Below are positions 3,309-31,697 of a DNA stretch of 64,000 bases, piece after piece. Each line of letters begins with the position of its first letter. Positions within the stretch are counted from its first letter, which is position 1. A program made the position numbers and the translations under genes. Below the pieces are notes generated by a model, which saw only the letters and a program-made list of their open reading frames with translations, did not search any database and was not told the origin of the DNA. The DNA is taken from positions 50,769-114,768 of the forward strand of contig LFCO01000003.1 in NCBI GenBank assembly GCA_001189165.1. Direction: 5' to 3'. The stretch is from Parcubacteria bacterium C7867-005. Lineage in GTDB: Bacteria > Patescibacteriota > Minisyncoccia > Phycocordibacterales > Zambryskibacteraceae.

Positions 3309-4421
3309 CTAAATCCTCGGACCATTTGAGTGACCACTCATACTGGACAACATCCCTAAAGCAAACCACTCTGTCAAAAGATGTGATCCTCCATAGCTCA
3401 TAAACGGAAAAGTGATCCCCGTCACAGGCAAGACACCCATATTCATACCAGCATGGATGATGATGTGCACGGTGAACAAGATCGCCAGGCCTAAACCAAA
3501 AAGTGATTCGAAATTCGCTGGGGCAAATTGCGCACTATTCACAATTCTGAATAACAAGAGAATACACAGAAACAGGAGGAGGCATGTACCAACCAAACCC
3601 CATTCTTCAGCAAAGGAAGCGAAGATAAAGTCTGTCTGGAACTCTGGTAGAAACCTGAGTTTGGATTGACTGCCCTCTCCGATACCCTTACCAAAAACTT
3701 CTCCTGAACCAACGGCCACCGTGGATTGGTAGGCGTTGTATCCACTGCCGGTGATATTCGCAAGTGGGTGGAGGAAGTTAGCGATACGCGCTTTTTGATA
3801 TGGGGCGAAGACGAAGAACCACATTATCACGGTGACTATCGCACCGAGACCGATGACCAGTGCCAGATGCTTTTTGGATATACCAGAGACGAGGAGCATC
3901 CCAAACCAGATCGCAAAGATGATGACTGCCCCACCAAAATCGGGCTGTAAGAACACTAATAAAAAAACGATCAAAGCATAAATACCAGAGACAATGATGT
4001 GCTTGATATTCGCTATCTCTATATGTCTCCTGGAAAAATACTTGGCCAACATGAGAATGGTCACAAGCTTTGCAGGGTCAGATGGTTGAAAAGCAAAAAA
4101 GCCAAAATCAAACCAGCTTTGTGCTCCTTTGACCACTTGTCCGAGGCCAAACAAAAGCAAAAGTACGAAAACCATAATAAAAAATACAGTCATGAGGATT
4201 CTGGTTTGTCTTAGAAACCTCCAGTCGACGGCGCTCGCAAACACGAACGCCAACACAGATAAAAGTATCCAGATGGCTTGTTTAGAAAAAAATGAATGAT
4301 CGACGGAGAAAGAATTCATGGTGATCAAACCAAACAAAGATATGAGCATGGCTGGTACAAAGAGGTACCAATCGATCCGGATGCGCTCTCCGAATGTTTT
4401 AAAAAGTGAAACTAAACTCAT
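3309..4421 (-). CDS. SEDS-family peptidoglycan glycosyltransferase (FtsW/RodA/SpoVE)
   Basis: 370 aa polytopic membrane protein; C-terminal FtsW/RodA signature (EFQTDFIFASFAEEWG ... FPFMSYGGSHLL). Confidence 0.85.
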   Translation of the reverse strand: MSLVSLFKTFGERIRIDWYLFVPAMLISLFGLITMNSFSVDHSFFSKQAIWILLSVLAFVFASAVDWRFLRQTRILMTVFFIMVFVLLLLFGLGQVVKGAQSWFDFGFFAFQPSDPAKLVTILMLAKYFSRRHIEIANIKHIIVSGIYALIVFLLVFLQPDFGGAVIIFAIWFGMLLVSGISKKHLALVIGLGAIVTVIMWFFVFAPYQKARIANFLHPLANITGSGYNAYQSTVAVGSGEVFGKGIGEGSQSKLRFLPEFQTDFIFASFAEEWGLVGTCLLLFLCILLLFRIVNSAQFAPANFESLFGLGLAILFTVHIIIHAGMNMGVLPVTGITFPFMSYGGSHLLTEWFALGMLSSMSGHSNGPRI

Positions 4422-26679: not shown

Positions 26680-27969
26680 CTATTTTTTAACAGAAAGGAG
26701 TTTTAGAGTATCTACGAGCTCTTTTTGATCTTTTATGTTGCCTATGACCGCGAGGTTCAGACCTTCGTTTTTGAAAATATCTCTGGCTACTTTCTGAATA
26801 TCTTTGGCAGTGACCCCCTCTATCTCTTTCTTGATTTCATCTGGAGTTTTTATTTTTCTTTTGATTATCTCTTGGATACCGTTAAATTCTGCAAGAGAGT
26901 CGCTGGTCTCAAGACCCAAATACAAATGCCCGGTCATAAAATCCTTTGTTTTCTTTAGCTCTGCATCACTGACCAGTTCAACGGTTAGCTTCTGACATTC
27001 TTCAAGCAAGACCTTCACTACTTCCACTATGCGTTTGTTGTCTACACCTGTGCTGATGGAGAAAAATCCGTGGTCAGTATATGTGTCCGCAGAACTACGA
27101 ACATAATAACAAACGCCCATCTCTTCCCTCAATTTATTGAAGAGTCTAGAAGACATGCCTGCACCGAGTACTCCAGAGAGAACAGAAAGCGCCCTAGTCC
27201 TTTTATCAAAAGCATCATAGGCTCTGAAACCCAAAACCATATGGGTTTGATCTGTCTCTTTTTGTTTTACTAAAATTTTAGGCTCCTTTTGTGATTCTAC
27301 GACTTTTTTCTTTGGAGATTTCTTTCCTTTGGATATTTCTTTGAAATACTTCTCCGCGGATTTGAAAACTTGTTCTGGAGAACACTTCCCGGCGACCACG
27401 AGAGTGGTCGCACTCGCTACATAGTGTTTGGATCTATACTCGACAAAATCTCCACGCTTCATCTTGCTGATATTTTCTTTTGGACCTGCGATGCCCCACC
27501 CAGCAGGTTGATCTCCGTATAAAAGCTCCATGAACAACCAACCAACCAATGTTTGAGGTAGATCTTCGTACATGTTGATCTCTTGTATGATCACCCCCTT
27601 CTCTTTCTCCATCTCTGCTTCTGGAAATGTTGGGTTCAGATACATGTCAGAGATGATGTCGACGATCTGGTTCAAATGCTTGGATTCTGCCTTGGCATAA
27701 TAGCCGGTGAATTCTTCTGTTGTGAAAGCATTTGATTGGGCACCAAGACCGTCGAGCTCCTGGTTCACGTGCATAGAGGTTGGCCGTTTTTTGGTCCCTT
27801 TAAAGCACATATGTTCTAGGAAATGTGAAATGCCATTTTTGTCCTTGGTCTCATACTTTGAACCCGCCTCAACCAGGGTCAGTACAGTAACCGTATTTGT
27901 ATCCTTCATGGGCACTACGACCACCCGCATACCATTCCTCAGTACCTTTTTCTTGTATTGCATAGGCAC
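26680..27969 (-). CDS. M16-family zinc peptidase (insulinase/pitrilysin-like)
   Basis: 429 aa; inverted zinc-binding motif HFLEH...E near the N-terminus, two M16 half-domains. Confidence 0.8.
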   Translation of the reverse strand: MPMQYKKKVLRNGMRVVVVPMKDTNTVTVLTLVEAGSKYETKDKNGISHFLEHMCFKGTKKRPTSMHVNQELDGLGAQSNAFTTEEFTGYYAKAESKHLNQIVDIISDMYLNPTFPEAEMEKEKGVIIQEINMYEDLPQTLVGWLFMELLYGDQPAGWGIAGPKENISKMKRGDFVEYRSKHYVASATTLVVAGKCSPEQVFKSAEKYFKEISKGKKSPKKKVVESQKEPKILVKQKETDQTHMVLGFRAYDAFDKRTRALSVLSGVLGAGMSSRLFNKLREEMGVCYYVRSSADTYTDHGFFSISTGVDNKRIVEVVKVLLEECQKLTVELVSDAELKKTKDFMTGHLYLGLETSDSLAEFNGIQEIIKRKIKTPDEIKKEIEGVTAKDIQKVARDIFKNEGLNLAVIGNIKDQKELVDTLKLLSVKK

Positions 27970-27979
27970 ACAGAATATC

Positions 27980-28966
27980 TTATTTGAGTACTTCCTTCAA
28001 ATCTAAAAACTGCTCTCTTATTTTATAAGTATCCCCATGTTTAAGTAGCCCCAGATACGAAGCTCTAGTTTCTTTAGATTGATTCGTTTTCAGATTCTTC
28101 AACACCCTCCTCTTAGTAGCCGTCCTTAGTATCCTGTGGGTCGGAAAGTGAATCCAACCGAGGAAATCTACTCCGGAAACAAGGGTTTTGATAGAGACCT
28201 TACTAGGGTGCAGTTCTAGCTTTAGTTTCTCCGATAGGAACACCTTCATAGACCCGAGAGTATTTGTTAACCCTGATTTATCTGGAGACAGAAGAACGAA
28301 ATCATCTGCATAGCGGATGTAGTACTTGATTTTCAGTTTATGCTTCACAAAGTGATCAAACTCGTTCATGTAGATATTGACCAAAAGTTGAGAGGTGAGG
28401 TTTCCCAGAGGTAGTCCCTTGCCTTCAGTGCTAGAGTTAAAGCTTTCTATCACTCTCTCCAGAAGATTGAGAGTGTCTTTGTCTTCTATGTATTTGGTAA
28501 GGATATTAAGCAAGATTTGGTGATCTATGGAGGCAAAGAATTTGCGCATATCGCACTTCAGTGTCCAAGAAGTTTTGGTGTTATTCTTTGAGATCTTGTA
28601 ACCAAAACTTCTGAACCTGTTCAGGGCCTTGTGTGTACCCTTATTCAAACGGCAGGAATATGAGTCATGGATGAACTTCTTGTCGAAGTATGGGTATAAG
28701 ACTCTGTATATAGCATGGTGGAGTAATCTGTCTCGAACTGATGCTTTGTGAATATTCCGAGGCTTGGGATCTGAGATGTTGAAGGCTTGATAATCTGAGT
28801 GACTGTATGTCTTGTTCAATAAGTCTTGATGGAGGTCAAATATATTTTCTGAAAGATTTAGGCTAAAGATGGCAACATCTTTTCTTTGTCTTTTACCACA
28901 AATGAATTCCTCCCATGCTTTGTATAAATTTTCTATTGATATGATACTCTGATAATTCATGAACAC
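27980..28966 (-). CDS. Diversity-generating retroelement (DGR) reverse transcriptase
   Basis: 328 aa; RT motifs incl. YADD (IRYADDFVLL) and the DGR-diagnostic [I/L]GxxxSQ box (GLPLGNLTSQLLVNIYMNEFDHF) replacing QGxxxSP; same size as phage BPP-1 bRT; adjacent to Avd and TR/VR. Confidence 0.85.
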   Translation of the reverse strand: MFMNYQSIISIENLYKAWEEFICGKRQRKDVAIFSLNLSENIFDLHQDLLNKTYSHSDYQAFNISDPKPRNIHKASVRDRLLHHAIYRVLYPYFDKKFIHDSYSCRLNKGTHKALNRFRSFGYKISKNNTKTSWTLKCDMRKFFASIDHQILLNILTKYIEDKDTLNLLERVIESFNSSTEGKGLPLGNLTSQLLVNIYMNEFDHFVKHKLKIKYYIRYADDFVLLSPDKSGLTNTLGSMKVFLSEKLKLELHPSKVSIKTLVSGVDFLGWIHFPTHRILRTATKRRVLKNLKTNQSKETRASYLGLLKHGDTYKIREQFLDLKEVLK

Positions 28967-29001
28967 TAATCATACTCAATACCCCCCCCCGAGAAGCACC
29001 C

Positions 29002-29346
29002 ATGGTGCTCCTCAAATCGAAAGATGCATACAGACTTTGGCTTAAGATTGAAAGAGACCTGCCCAAGGTTGAAAGATTGGGTATCGGAAACAAAATTGAT
29101 TCTACTTTCCTAGAGTTCTTGGAAATTCTATTTGTATCTAGCTATACAGCCCTAGACAAAAAACTTTTGCTGCTTGGACAAGCGATGTCAAAACACGATT
29201 CTCTCAAATTTTTCTGCCAGATTGCTTGGGAAAACAAATTGATTCATACATCAAAGTATTCTGAGCTTTCAGCCCATCTTGAAGAGATTGGAAGAATGCT
29301 TGGTGGCTGGCGAAAGGGGCTACAAACAAAACTCCCAGCCAATTAG
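29002..29346 (+). CDS. avd: DGR accessory variability determinant (Avd), four-helix-bundle family
   Basis: 114 aa, basic; C-terminus EEIGRMLGGWRKGLQTK resembles Bordetella phage bAvd AEVGRILGSWIARVNRK; immediately abuts TR. On the opposite strand to RT, TR and target. Confidence 0.7.
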   Translation: MVLLKSKDAYRLWLKIERDLPKVERLGIGNKIDSTFLEFLEILFVSSYTALDKKLLLLGQAMSKHDSLKFFCQIAWENKLIHTSKYSELSAHLEEIGRMLGGWRKGLQTKLPAN

Positions 29347-29368
29347 GTCGGGAGAAAAACAGCATTTT

Positions 29369-29477
29369 CGAGAGAACGCACGATTGCCAGCGTTCCACCT
29401 GTTGTCGTCGCGGCGCCACGTGTTCACGTTCCACTTGCCATCATCGGCATTCCAGTTCACGTTCACGACACAGGAAG
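29369..29477 (-). repeat. DGR template repeat (TR)
   Basis: 109-bp repeat; 93 of 109 bp identical to VR at 29795-29903. On the minus strand all 16 mismatches are at TR adenines (16 of 24 adenines), with no other differences. Confidence 0.85.
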
Positions 29478-29699
29478 CATTGTTCTCGTACGAGGTTACA
29501 TCCATACCACCGCCAGCCGATCACTCGATTGGTTGTATTTTATTTGGGACATATAAGTCCTCCACAACCCCGTACCAAATCTTGTTATTTTTTAAAGAAA
29601 ATTATTGCTCTCGTGTATAAGACGTATCCAATACACTCTCACATATAATTCTCCCAAACTGTGCCAAGAAAGCCGTGGCCATCTTGCTCACACAAGTTC

Positions 29700-29733
29700 T
29701 CAATCATTATACAAAAAAATGGACCCTTCAGTT
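29700..29733 (-). terminator. Rho-independent terminator after DGR target gene, immediately followed by a TATAAT -10-like box
   Basis: ggacccttcgaaactgaagggtcc hairpin plus T7 run (minus sense), then ttgtataatg. Confidence 0.55.
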
Positions 29734-29790
29734 TCGAAGGGTCCAAGGTTCCTAGGTTCCAAGAATCAGAGAGACTCAAGGAACCAAGAT

Positions 29791-30390
29791 TCAGCGAGAG
29801 AACGCACGATCGCCAGCGCTCCACCCGATGACGTCGCGGCGCCACGTGCCCACGTTCCACCGGCCAACATCGGCAAGCCAGCGCACGACCACGACACAGG
29901 AAGAGGTGTAGAAGAGGTTGGCGAACCCGTTGTTCAAGAGTTCGCCCTCCTTGCCTCCCTCCTGCTCCGTGATGAGCTTCTGGATCACGGCACAGACTTC
30001 AACTTCGGTGAAGATGTGCCCGTTGCCGAGCATCTCTTCGATCTCCTTGTCCGTCATGTCGCGTGGGAGTGCAACGCTCTTCGACACGATCGGCTTCGCC
30101 TGCTCGCCTTTACCAACCTTGGCAAGAACGAGATCACGGAAACCGTCGTAGATGAAGAGGTCGGAACGGGTCTGGAAGAACTCGTGGTAATAGGGAGCGG
30201 GCATCTCCGTCACAGTGAATTTCACCGTGTCGTCGAGGATCCCGCGAGCGACCTGCCCACCACCGATCTTCTTGACGAGAGCGTTAAGCTCCCCTTGCGT
30301 CCAGTCCTTGGTCGTCCAGTTCATCGCTGTCTCCTTGGGCTTCGTTGCCCAAAAGATTTTGCCTCTCACCCGAGGCGGGGTCGTGGCCAA
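29791..30390 (-). CDS. DGR target protein (C-terminal variable region, putative C-type-lectin/FGE-like ligand-binding fold)
   Basis: 199 aa; C-terminus CVVVVRWLADVGRWNVGTWRRDVIGWSAGDRAFSR corresponds to TR-encoded CVVNVNWNADDGKWNVNTWRRDDNRWNAGNRAFSR (Asn AAY codons diversified); GC-rich (about 58%). Confidence 0.75.
   Translation of the reverse strand: MATTPPRVRGKIFWATKPKETAMNWTTKDWTQGELNALVKKIGGGQVARGILDDTVKFTVTEMPAPYYHEFFQTRSDLFIYDGFRDLVLAKVGKGEQAKPIVSKSVALPRDMTDKEIEEMLGNGHIFTEVEVCAVIQKLITEQEGGKEGELLNNGFANLFYTSSCVVVVRWLADVGRWNVGTWRRDVIGWSAGDRAFSR
29795..29903 (-). repeat. DGR variable repeat (VR) at 3' end of target gene
   Basis: See TR; lies within the last 37 codons of ORF 29791-30390 and ends 1 bp before its stop codon. 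Confidence 0.85.
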
Positions 30391-30467
30391 AAGACCACCT
30401 TACAAAGTGCTGTTACCTATATATTATACACACAAATAACCTCATTTGTCAATAGGACAAATGGGCC

Positions 30468-31697
30468 TTATTTTATAGCTTCTTTTAGGTCTTCTATTTT
30501 TACTCTTTTTTGTTCTCCAGTATCTCGATCACGAACAGTCACTGTATCCAAAAGTTCTGGATTCTCGCCGAGAGTGTCGAAGTCGATAGTGATGCAGTAC
30601 GGAGTGCCTATCTCATCTTGTCTTCTATACCTCTTACCAATGTTGCCGTTGTCGTCCCAAGCAATCCACTGGTTAAATTCTTTCTGTAACTTTGCCCTTA
30701 TCTCCTTTGCTTTCTTTACCAACTCTGGTTTGTTTTTCAGGAGCGGAAAGACCGCGGCCTTAAGCGGTGCGATTTCCTTAGGTAATTTCAGATACATCCT
30801 CGATTCTCCACCAAGATCATCTTCTCTGTACGCAGACAGCAGTATCGCGAGGATCGTCCTGTCTACCCCCAGAGATGGCTCGATCACATGAGGGACAAAT
30901 CTCTCCCCAGTTTCTTCATCAAAATACGAGAGGTCTACTGTGCTCGAAGCAGAATGAGCAGAGAGGTCAAAGTCTGTTCTGTATGCGAGGCCCCAAAGCT
31001 CCTTACGGCCAAACGGATAATCGAACTCGAAGTCAATCGTACGTTTACTATAGTGGGCACGGTCACCATCCCCCACTTCTAATTCATACACCTCTTCTAT
31101 GCCGACTGCCTTTGCAAAATCTTTCATCTTATTTCTCCATTCTTCAAAAGATTTCTCCCAATCCTTCTCCCTTATAAAATATTCTACTTCCATCTGCTCG
31201 AACTCTCTTTGTCTAAATATAAAATCTCTTGGAGATATTTCATTCCTAAATGCTTTACCGATCTGGGCAATGCCGAAAGGAAGTTTTGGATGATGGGAAT
31301 CAATAATATTCTTGAAATTCACAAATATACCCTGAGCTGTCTCTGGTCGTAAATAACTAGTTACAGCTGATTCACCGGCACCTACTGATGTCTGGAACAT
31401 CACATTAAACTTCTCACCACTTTCTAGTGGGTCTGCAAATCCAGCCACATGACCGCTCGCTTCCCATACTTTGGGGTTCATGATGATCGCCGCATCAAGG
31501 CCATACATGTCATCTCTCTCATCCCTGAACATTTGGAGCCAGACTTTTTTCAAATTCTCTTTCAACAGAACTCCCATAGGACCATAGTCAAAGCTTCCTG
31601 CAAGGCCACCATACACAAGAGACCCTGGGTATATAAACCCTCTACCCTTGGCAAGAGATATCACTTTTTCCATCAATTCTGGGTTTTTGTCTTTCAT
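30468..31697 (-). CDS. glyQS: Glycyl-tRNA synthetase (dimeric alpha2 type)
   Basis: 409 aa; class II motifs, conserved N-terminal LAKGRGFIYPGSLVYGGLAGSFDYGPMG. Confidence 0.9.
   Translation of the reverse strand: MKDKNPELMEKVISLAKGRGFIYPGSLVYGGLAGSFDYGPMGVLLKENLKKVWLQMFRDERDDMYGLDAAIIMNPKVWEASGHVAGFADPLESGEKFNVMFQTSVGAGESAVTSYLRPETAQGIFVNFKNIIDSHHPKLPFGIAQIGKAFRNEISPRDFIFRQREFEQMEVEYFIREKDWEKSFEEWRNKMKDFAKAVGIEEVYELEVGDGDRAHYSKRTIDFEFDYPFGRKELWGLAYRTDFDLSAHSASSTVDLSYFDEETGERFVPHVIEPSLGVDRTILAILLSAYREDDLGGESRMYLKLPKEIAPLKAAVFPLLKNKPELVKKAKEIRAKLQKEFNQWIAWDDNGNIGKRYRRQDEIGTPYCITIDFDTLGENPELLDTVTVRDRDTGEQKRVKIEDLKEAIK

Follow-up and report, generated by a model that had tools for sequence, protein, structure and literature searches.

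How does a diversity-generating retroelement (DGR) make its template RNA when the accessory gene avd lies in reverse orientation between the template repeat (TR) and the gene for the reverse transcriptase (RT)? This question is raised by a complete DGR in a 64,000-nucleotide stretch of DNA from Parcubacteria bacterium C7867-005 (contig LFCO01000003.1; hereafter the window), where the target gene with its variable repeat (VR), the TR as well as the gene for RT are all encoded on the minus strand, and avd is encoded on the plus strand. An earlier note, which had described this layout at essentially the coordinates found here, proposed that a minus-strand transcript runs through the TR and antisense across the whole of avd into the RT gene, with antisense avd sequence as the spacer that primes cDNA synthesis. 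Our analysis argues for a different arrangement, in which the TR is probably carried by a discrete RNA with its own 5′ scaffold and antisense avd has no role. The main interest of the locus is this covarying 5′ leader and its long-range pairing, rather than the gene layout. Positions are those of the window, and minus-strand features are mostly written in their 5′→3′ direction.

The repeat unit of the DGR is 109 nt long and occurs twice on the minus strand, ungapped and in register, at 29477→29369 and 29903→29795. The two copies are identical at 93 of 109 positions, and all 16 mismatches fall at adenines of the first copy as read on the minus strand; this identifies the first copy as the TR, the second as the VR and the minus strand as the one that is mutagenised, in agreement with the earlier note. 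Besides the VR, no further TR-like copy that could serve as a remote VR is present in the 64-kb window. For comparison we used 80 related loci (L001-L080) from species-representative genomes, 72 of which have DNA upstream of the RT gene. In 47 of these relatives a TR was located on the same strand as RT, at a median of 14 nt past the avd stop codon, with the VR a median of 331 nt upstream of the TR and 823 of 868 TR-VR mismatches at TR adenines. The mismatches are adenine-specific 5′ of an invariant G (G29369 in the window), whereas 3′ of it C, U and G differ as often as A, and this shift marks G29369 as the 3′ limit of information transfer.

The nominally intergenic stretch of about 330 nt between VR and TR is stereotyped in both length and content, comprising CTTNG repeats, a terminator, a -10 box and a leader of about 220 nt. 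The CTTNG array (29736-29794, minus strand) starts directly after the VR and has a period of about 8 nt; relatives carry 3.2 CTTNG per 90 nt after the VR, compared to a background of 0.4, and most often space them 7-8 nt apart. In the DGR of Bordetella phage BPP-1 the corresponding position is taken by a GC-rich cruciform. The array leads into an intrinsic-terminator-like element (29745→29713), composed of an 11-bp hairpin (29745→29720) and a T7 run (29719→29713), which would end the target transcript. A TATAAT box (29711→29706), the putative -10 element of a promoter for the TR RNA, follows at once and is conserved at the aligned position in relatives, where 45 of 46 loci have TAnnnT and 31 of 46 the extended form TGnTAnnnT. 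The earlier note was thus right that a TATAAT box directly follows the target terminator, and the coordinates it gave for the two elements, 29695-29700 and 29700-29733, are about 12 nt too low.

The structured 5′ leader (29700→29478) contains five helices, P1 to P5. P1 (29686→29665) and P2 (29648→29601) are followed by an A-rich strand (29596→29576), the 5′ strand of P3 (29575→29564), P4 (29560→29547), an A-rich junction (29546→29534), P5 (29533→29512), a second junction of sequence GGUGGUAUGGAU (29511→29500) and the 3′ strand of P3 (29499→29488). The two strands of P3 (12 bp) thereby enclose the helices P4 and P5 with their A-rich junction, and 10 nt separate P3 from the 5′ end of the TR. RNAalifold applied to 36 leaders yielded 46 base pairs, 40 of which show compensatory changes. 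In this alignment 93.7% of the leader cells are paired, compared to 66.1% in shuffles, and the covariation score is 0.841, compared to 0.289 in shuffled alignments (0 of 500 reach 0.841) and 0.15-0.26 in controls with slid partners. Folded as a single sequence, the window leader recovers the same helices with a z of -3.57.

Moreover, when the window sequence was left out of the building of a covariance model for the P3-P5 domain, the model still detected the domain in the window at 29596→29486 with 91.7 bits and E = 1.2e-17, the sole significant match in 64 kb. Across 81 loci the same model gave 70 matches in 68 loci, always ending just ahead of the TR; in L020, where the TR lies on the other strand, the leader match lies likewise on that strand. 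A search of Rfam over 27500-31000 returned no family at E <= 5 beyond chance level, the best match scoring 19.7 bits against gathering scores of 40-80. Neither the leader nor its long-range pairing was found described in the literature searched, the main paper on the DGRs of the candidate phyla radiation (CPR) being outside the scope of that search, and the leader RNA may be undescribed so far.

P1 and P2 share the apical motif U-GGY-[UACG/YAAG]-GYU-U, in which a UNCG-like tetraloop sits on a conserved G-U-closed stem. The shared motif suggests that the two helices (29665-29686 and 29601-29648) are two copies of one protein-binding site; in BPP-1, Avd binds a UNCG-capped stem-loop.

A conserved leader upstream of the TR might also act as a regulatory 5′ untranslated region, or as a separate small RNA, that controls the level of the TR RNA or serves as a sensor, outside the scaffold for reverse transcription. 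Such a role would fit with P1 and P2 having no obvious counterpart in the BPP-1 RNA, and the link of the leader to RT and Avd is purely inferential. We consider it very improbable because the leader is found next to TRs only, has moved with the TR to the other strand in L020, places P3 within 10 nt of the TR 5′ edge and, with covariation, pairs to the sequence immediately 3′ of the TR.

This last pairing involves the A-rich strand that adjoins P3 on its 5′ side and is complementary to the stretch immediately following the TR (29370→29355), composed of a CG(A/C)AAYU motif and a U-rich strand. Duplexes between the two strands of the same locus have a mean energy of -6.14 kcal/mol, compared to -4.67 kcal/mol with partners from other loci and -3.92 kcal/mol with shuffled partners (permutation p = 5e-5). 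The pairs change in a compensatory manner among loci, for example AAAUGAAGA/UCUUCAUUU, AAAUAAAGA/UCUUUAUUU, AAAUAAACA/UGUUUAUUU and AAAUGAAAA/UUUUCAUUU. Scored on an alignment from which the TR was excised (A4), a 9-bp part of the helix is 81% paired, with both sides changed at six of the nine pairs, and the UU:AA pairs that adjoin P3 are invariant in 26 of 26 loci. As the leader strands of P3 and of the long-range helix are contiguous (UUG|G), the TR is looped out between two adjacent duplexes. Another candidate pairing, between the TR 3′ end and the J5/3 junction (GGUGG..AGAUGG), was dropped, its energy gap between own and other loci being only ~0.9 kcal/mol and its registers inconsistent.

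Aligned over the 130 nt that follow the TR, the loci share a single conserved module, after which only the imprint of Avd coding is seen. The CG(A/C)AAYU motif borders the TR and opens the module, which continues with ~12 nt rich in U and C and is completed by a hairpin and a tail of the UUUUGUUUU type. The hairpin stems are wholly different between loci, such as CUCCCGGC/GCCGGGAG, CCACGUGAGAUG/UAUCUCACGUGG and CAAAAUCCCGG/CCGGGAUUUUG. A hairpin with a T-rich tail, sought within 55 nt of the TR end, occurs on the TR strand in 41 of 47 loci and on the other strand in none of the 47, compared to 73 of 940 random windows (7.8%). In the window, the hairpin (29354→29332) has the stem CUCCCG/UGGGAG and an 11-nt loop that includes the sequence complementary to the stop codon of avd; the U-rich tail UUUUGUUUGUAG (29331→29320), antisense to avd codons 107-110, is the probable 3′ end of the TR RNA.

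The single long transcript of the earlier note, starting at the TATAAT box and passing through the TR and antisense avd into the RT gene, with the spacer for RT-Avd binding and priming in antisense avd, has to be weighed against this module. TR, antisense avd and RT are indeed contiguous on the minus strand, the 402 nt from the TR end to the RT start including gaps of just 22 nt (TR end to avd stop) and 35 or 41 nt (avd start to the GTG or ATG start of RT), and intrinsic terminators are never fully efficient. In addition, the last ~25 nt of avd overlap the conserved RNA element. Further into the gene, such a spacer should leave a mark on synonymous sites, which we measured as same-codon frequency in a codon alignment of 47 avd genes. 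For codons 1-106 this frequency is ~0.2-0.3 at four- and six-fold degenerate codons and 0.5-0.65 at two-fold ones, equal to the saturated, neutral expectation; values of 0.73-0.95 are confined to a few codons at the very end (consensus K-Q-N), compared to ~0.2-0.65 elsewhere. The antisense-avd RNA 29331→28967 shows no excess folding either, being no more stable than its shuffles (z = +0.31).

Thus the TR-proximal element overlaps the last ~8 avd codons, and nothing further into avd is constrained. The earlier note was right in so far as the first ~45 nt past the TR carry a conserved element that overlaps, in antisense, the ~25 nt at the avd 3′ end. Together with the conserved hairpin and U-tract between the TR and the body of avd, the covarying scaffold upstream of the TR, and a conserved G-tract and TAnAAT element that the RT gene has of its own, these findings make the long transcript quite unlikely. 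Apart from the ~25-nt overlap, read-through combined with an antisense spacer is not supported.

The discrete TR RNA with its 5′ scaffold could also be primed in another way, with the free 3′-OH of the terminated U-tail (UUUUGUUU-3′) as primer, once the tail has folded onto the AAAC/AAAA motif that directly follows the invariant G. A similar model, with priming by the 3′-OH of nicked RNA, was reportedly proposed for BPP-1 by Naorem et al. in 2017. The tail usually has GUUU and the motif usually AAAC, and BPP-1 requires only 4 bp adjoining the active site. The tail is not inert either, being partly complementary to the A-rich leader strand of its own locus (p = 0.0026); we treat this signal as a secondary or composition effect, because the strand ahead of the hairpin pairs more strongly and covaries better with the same A-block. 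When the variable base of the motif was compared with the interrupting base of the tail, 23 of 35 loci had compatible pairs, no better than the ~20 expected by chance, and the U-tail was rejected as a primer on the AAAC motif. Moreover, the AA of the motif pairs invariantly with the leader UU instead (26/26). Priming from the U-tail is therefore unlikely.

Returning to priming within the leader, we propose a model of four transcription units, in which transcript ends, priming nucleotide and protein contacts are inferred and set on an anatomy whose conservation and covariation are observed. The first unit would be the target gene, from a consensus promoter (30452→30423) to the terminator at 29745→29713. 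The second would be the discrete TR RNA of ~375 nt, starting after the TATAAT box at 29711→29706, ending near 29323 and carrying, in order, the ~220-nt leader with P1-P5, the TR, the CG(A/C)AAYU motif, the U-rich strand, the hairpin and the U-tract. The third would be avd, from a plus-strand promoter embedded antisense in the first RT codons, and the fourth RT, from its own -10-like element just past the G9 tract. By analogy with the cryo-electron microscopy structure of the BPP-1 DGR ribonucleoprotein (RNP), the long-range helix would be the template:primer duplex and P3 the roadblock or ‘cPRT Stop’ duplex, with P4, the A-rich junction and P5 corresponding to the short stem-loop, the adenosines, the thumb ring and the RT-binding stem-loop. 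The hairpin after the TR may be the Avd-binding stem-loop, doubling as terminator. The priming nucleotide would then be G29576 or U29577, opposite the template base G29369. Because the spacer functions would sit 5′ of the TR, avd can abut the TR tail-to-tail in inverted orientation. It is a serious possibility, to be held tentatively, that the RNA of the whole B3 lineage (the DGR architecture described below) is a circular permutation of the BPP-1 RNA, with the primer, roadblock and RT-binding strands moved into the 5′ leader and 2′-OH priming from an internal leader nucleotide at UUG|G, opposite the invariant G.

Several points weigh against this model. Its promoters, terminator and RNA ends are predicted from consensus sequences, and the correspondence with BPP-1 elements is drawn only from order, size and position. 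The 3′ hairpin of the window has just five Watson-Crick pairs and one G-U pair, and such a terminator-like hairpin can be leaky, possibly with some read-through into antisense avd and RT. The long-range duplex of the window is rich in A and U and of low stability (-3.9 kcal/mol, which ranks it 14th of 30), and the pair adjoining P3 is G:C in 15 of 26 loci and G:A in the 11 CGAAA loci, the window included. In addition, the assignment of RNA elements for CPR DGRs by Handa et al. (bioRxiv 10.1101/2023.10.23.563531) differs from the leader-based one given here. That preprint reported BPP-1-like stem-loops and upstream:downstream duplexes by folding 40 nt upstream and 100 nt downstream of the TR, a range that in B3 cassettes misses the leader and takes in antisense avd.

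As to the layout itself, avd is inverted and diverges from RT by 31-95 nt in 71 of the 72 related loci with upstream DNA. The same order appears in the catalogue of Wu et al. 2018 (PMC5758913) as architecture B3, TR-(avd)-RT, with parentheses for the reverse strand, and B3 makes up 90% of their CPR DGR set. The locus belongs to B3, with identical order, orientation, CPR host and single adjacent target gene, and without any difference in gene layout. The inverted avd is therefore the norm of the lineage, already catalogued, and not a product of chance or local inversion; the term ‘non-canonical’ used in the earlier note applies relative to phage BPP-1 only. The text of Wu et al. contains none of the words ‘spacer’, ‘secondary structure’ and ‘RNA structure’, so the leader, the long-range helix and the hairpin with its U-tract are additions to that work, not contradictions of it. 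Two relatives depart from the usual arrangement. In L020 (2508-2761) the matched RT is encoded on one strand and leader and TR on the other, and L042 has two leader/TR/avd modules (1725-1835 and 3360-3467). The leader-TR-(avd) block therefore appears to form a module that may part from RT or be present twice.

The avd gene (29002-29346, plus strand; 114 aa) points towards the TR RNA and away from RT. Its assignment as an Avd homologue, made earlier from the sequence, was borne out by hidden Markov models (HMMs). The product matches Pfam bAvd with E = 2e-9 and 38.3 bits, just below the 40-bit cut-off, over positions 14-106 of the 107-position profile, and NCBIfam DivGenRetAVD with E = 1.1e-14 and 54.6 bits (cut-off 80) over positions 5-104 of 104. 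Moreover, bAvd was matched by 40 of 40 Avd orthologues from related loci, with a best E of 4.8e-17. A profile of these 40 orthologues found nothing at E <= 0.01 among PDB sequences, so that Avd is identified here from its HMM matches.

The RT gene (28966→27980) starts with GTG at 28966, or with ATG at 28960 in the public annotation (326 aa), and its product matches RVT_1 with E = 4e-26. RTs of the DGR type have an RVT_1 domain with an (I/L)GxxxSQ motif; the window RT carries LPLGNLTSQ, in which G188, N189, T191, S192 and Q193 are invariant among 22 homologues. It matches the RT of Parcubacteria bacterium C7867-005 with 100% identity and has thousands of homologues, 60-72% identical, in metagenome-assembled genomes (MAGs) of Patescibacteria/CPR. 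Four defining features of a DGR, namely adenine-only TR/VR differences, an RT of the DGR type, a target gene that carries the VR at its 3′ end, and Avd, are thus found at the locus.

The target gene (30390→29791) has a longest open reading frame (ORF) of 199 aa, in which the VR (29795-29903) ends 4 nt ahead of the stop codon. Its likely start is the ATG at 30324, with AAGGAG 6 nt upstream, giving 177 aa as in the NCBI annotation. The protein has no match in Pfam or NCBIfam and only chance-level sequence matches in the PDB. A predicted sigma-70-type promoter (30452→30423), with TTGACA, an 18-nt spacer and TATAAT, matches the consensus at 12 of 12 positions, and a start at ATG 30324 leaves a 5′ untranslated region of ~90 nt after it. 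Housekeeping genes for glycyl-tRNA synthetase, an M16 peptidase and methionyl-tRNA synthetase are neighbours of the cassette, which is hence chromosomal. As to diversification of the VR, two independent public records of the window MAG are identical over 6 kb. Among Zambryskibacteria loci with an identical RT, termed P0015 (L083-L092), one record has an N-run over the VR and a different VR sequence, and two others show VR-TR collapse; these differences are consistent with population heterogeneity at the VR in a relative.

The gap between avd and RT holds a tract of nine C on the plus strand, or G9 on the RT strand (28990→28982). A run of 8-14 G precedes RT in 61 of 74 relatives, often directly followed by TAnAAT, and 601 kb contain only two further G/C runs of at least 8 nt. 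The tract may act as a slipped-strand, phase-variable switch, or as a promoter element for RT or avd. Its length is the same in both records of the window MAG, and P0015, the relative represented by multiple samples, is among the minority without it. In 27 of 47 loci a putative extended -10 element (TGnTAnnnT) for avd precedes its start by 60-90 nt and lies antisense in conserved codons for the RT N-terminus, Y-(D/N)-N-I-I (TAYGATAATATCAT), which correspond to 28900-28960 in the window (RT codons ~3-20). At the other end, a terminator-like plus-strand site (29514-29545) is the antisense of P5 and the A-rich junction, the latter forming its U-rich flank. The avd mRNA may therefore cross antisense to the TR and end at this site, and the TR and avd transcripts may be convergent and overlapping.

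Since the inverted avd is standard in CPR cassettes, its presence between TR and RT should not count as anomalous in genome scans, and the layout flagged earlier needs no new biology. What the locus offers, for the DGR lineage that is most numerous and has been studied least, is a concrete RNA model open to test, with a promoter, a covarying leader, two helices that frame the TR, a candidate priming junction and a 3′ end; the conserved poly-G tract adds a candidate on/off switch of the element. If the permuted scaffold is true, the cis-priming architecture of one phage would be conserved in three dimensions and rearranged in sequence, in an RNA class absent from Rfam with a retron-like topology. 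It would also point to an RNA of ~375 nt for reconstitution of CPR DGRs, and surveys of DGR RNAs, which look mainly downstream of the TR, would misassign the CPR elements.

Comparison with known systems starts with the BPP-1 RNP, in which a template:primer duplex between TR 117-129 and spacer (Sp) 47-56 adjoins an avd:Sp ‘cPRT Stop’ duplex, with the TR looped out between both duplexes and G117 as the first template base (Handa et al., bioRxiv 10.1101/2023.10.23.563531). Beyond this duplex, the stop strand forms in turn a short stem-loop, a stretch of adenosines, a thumb ring that is single-stranded and a stem-loop that binds RT, and an Avd-binding stem-loop follows the TR (same preprint). The window DGR shares with BPP-1 the combination of RT, Avd and TR RNA, the adenine-specific mutagenesis and a G as the predicted first template base. 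The two RNAs also appear to resemble each other in that the TR is looped between two adjacent duplexes, one of them just 5′ of the TR, that a stem-loop comes directly after the TR, and that two stem-loops, the first of them short, lie past the second duplex with an A-rich single strand between them. P1 and P2 have no assigned counterpart in BPP-1. The order of parts differs greatly. In BPP-1 (mtd/VR-avd-TR-Sp-brt) avd is co-directional and upstream of the TR, and a non-coding spacer of 140 nt 3′ of the TR supplies the primer strand, the stop strand, the thumb ring and the RT-binding stem. Here, avd is inverted and downstream of the TR, with only 22 non-coding nt from the TR to the avd stop, which sets the cassette apart from the BPP-1-type architecture B1. 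Only ~45 nt separate the TR from the body of avd, and the equivalent strands would lie, permuted, in the ~220-nt leader 5′ of the TR. Two adjacent covarying duplexes flank the TR and a hairpin follows, a geometry that may correspond to that of BPP-1, but the strand shared by both duplexes is 5′ of the TR.

In topology only, the RNA also resembles the msr-msd RNA of retrons, where the 5′ and 3′ strands pair and bring the 3′ end of the template beside an internal purine at a helix end in the 5′ part of the RNA, with structured stem-loops between this purine and the template. The locus is not a retron: its RT falls into another clade, reaching 54.7 bits with the retron St85 model compared to a cut-off of 235, and the product is used here for mutagenic retrohoming into the VR. 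Finally, the RT-10 RNA motif is a structure between TR and brt in BPP-1-like DGRs, for which a role in priming was proposed (Weinberg et al. 2017, PMC5737381). The RT-10 motif lies 3′ of the TR, whereas the leader described here lies 5′ of it, and both are conserved RNA structures associated with DGRs.

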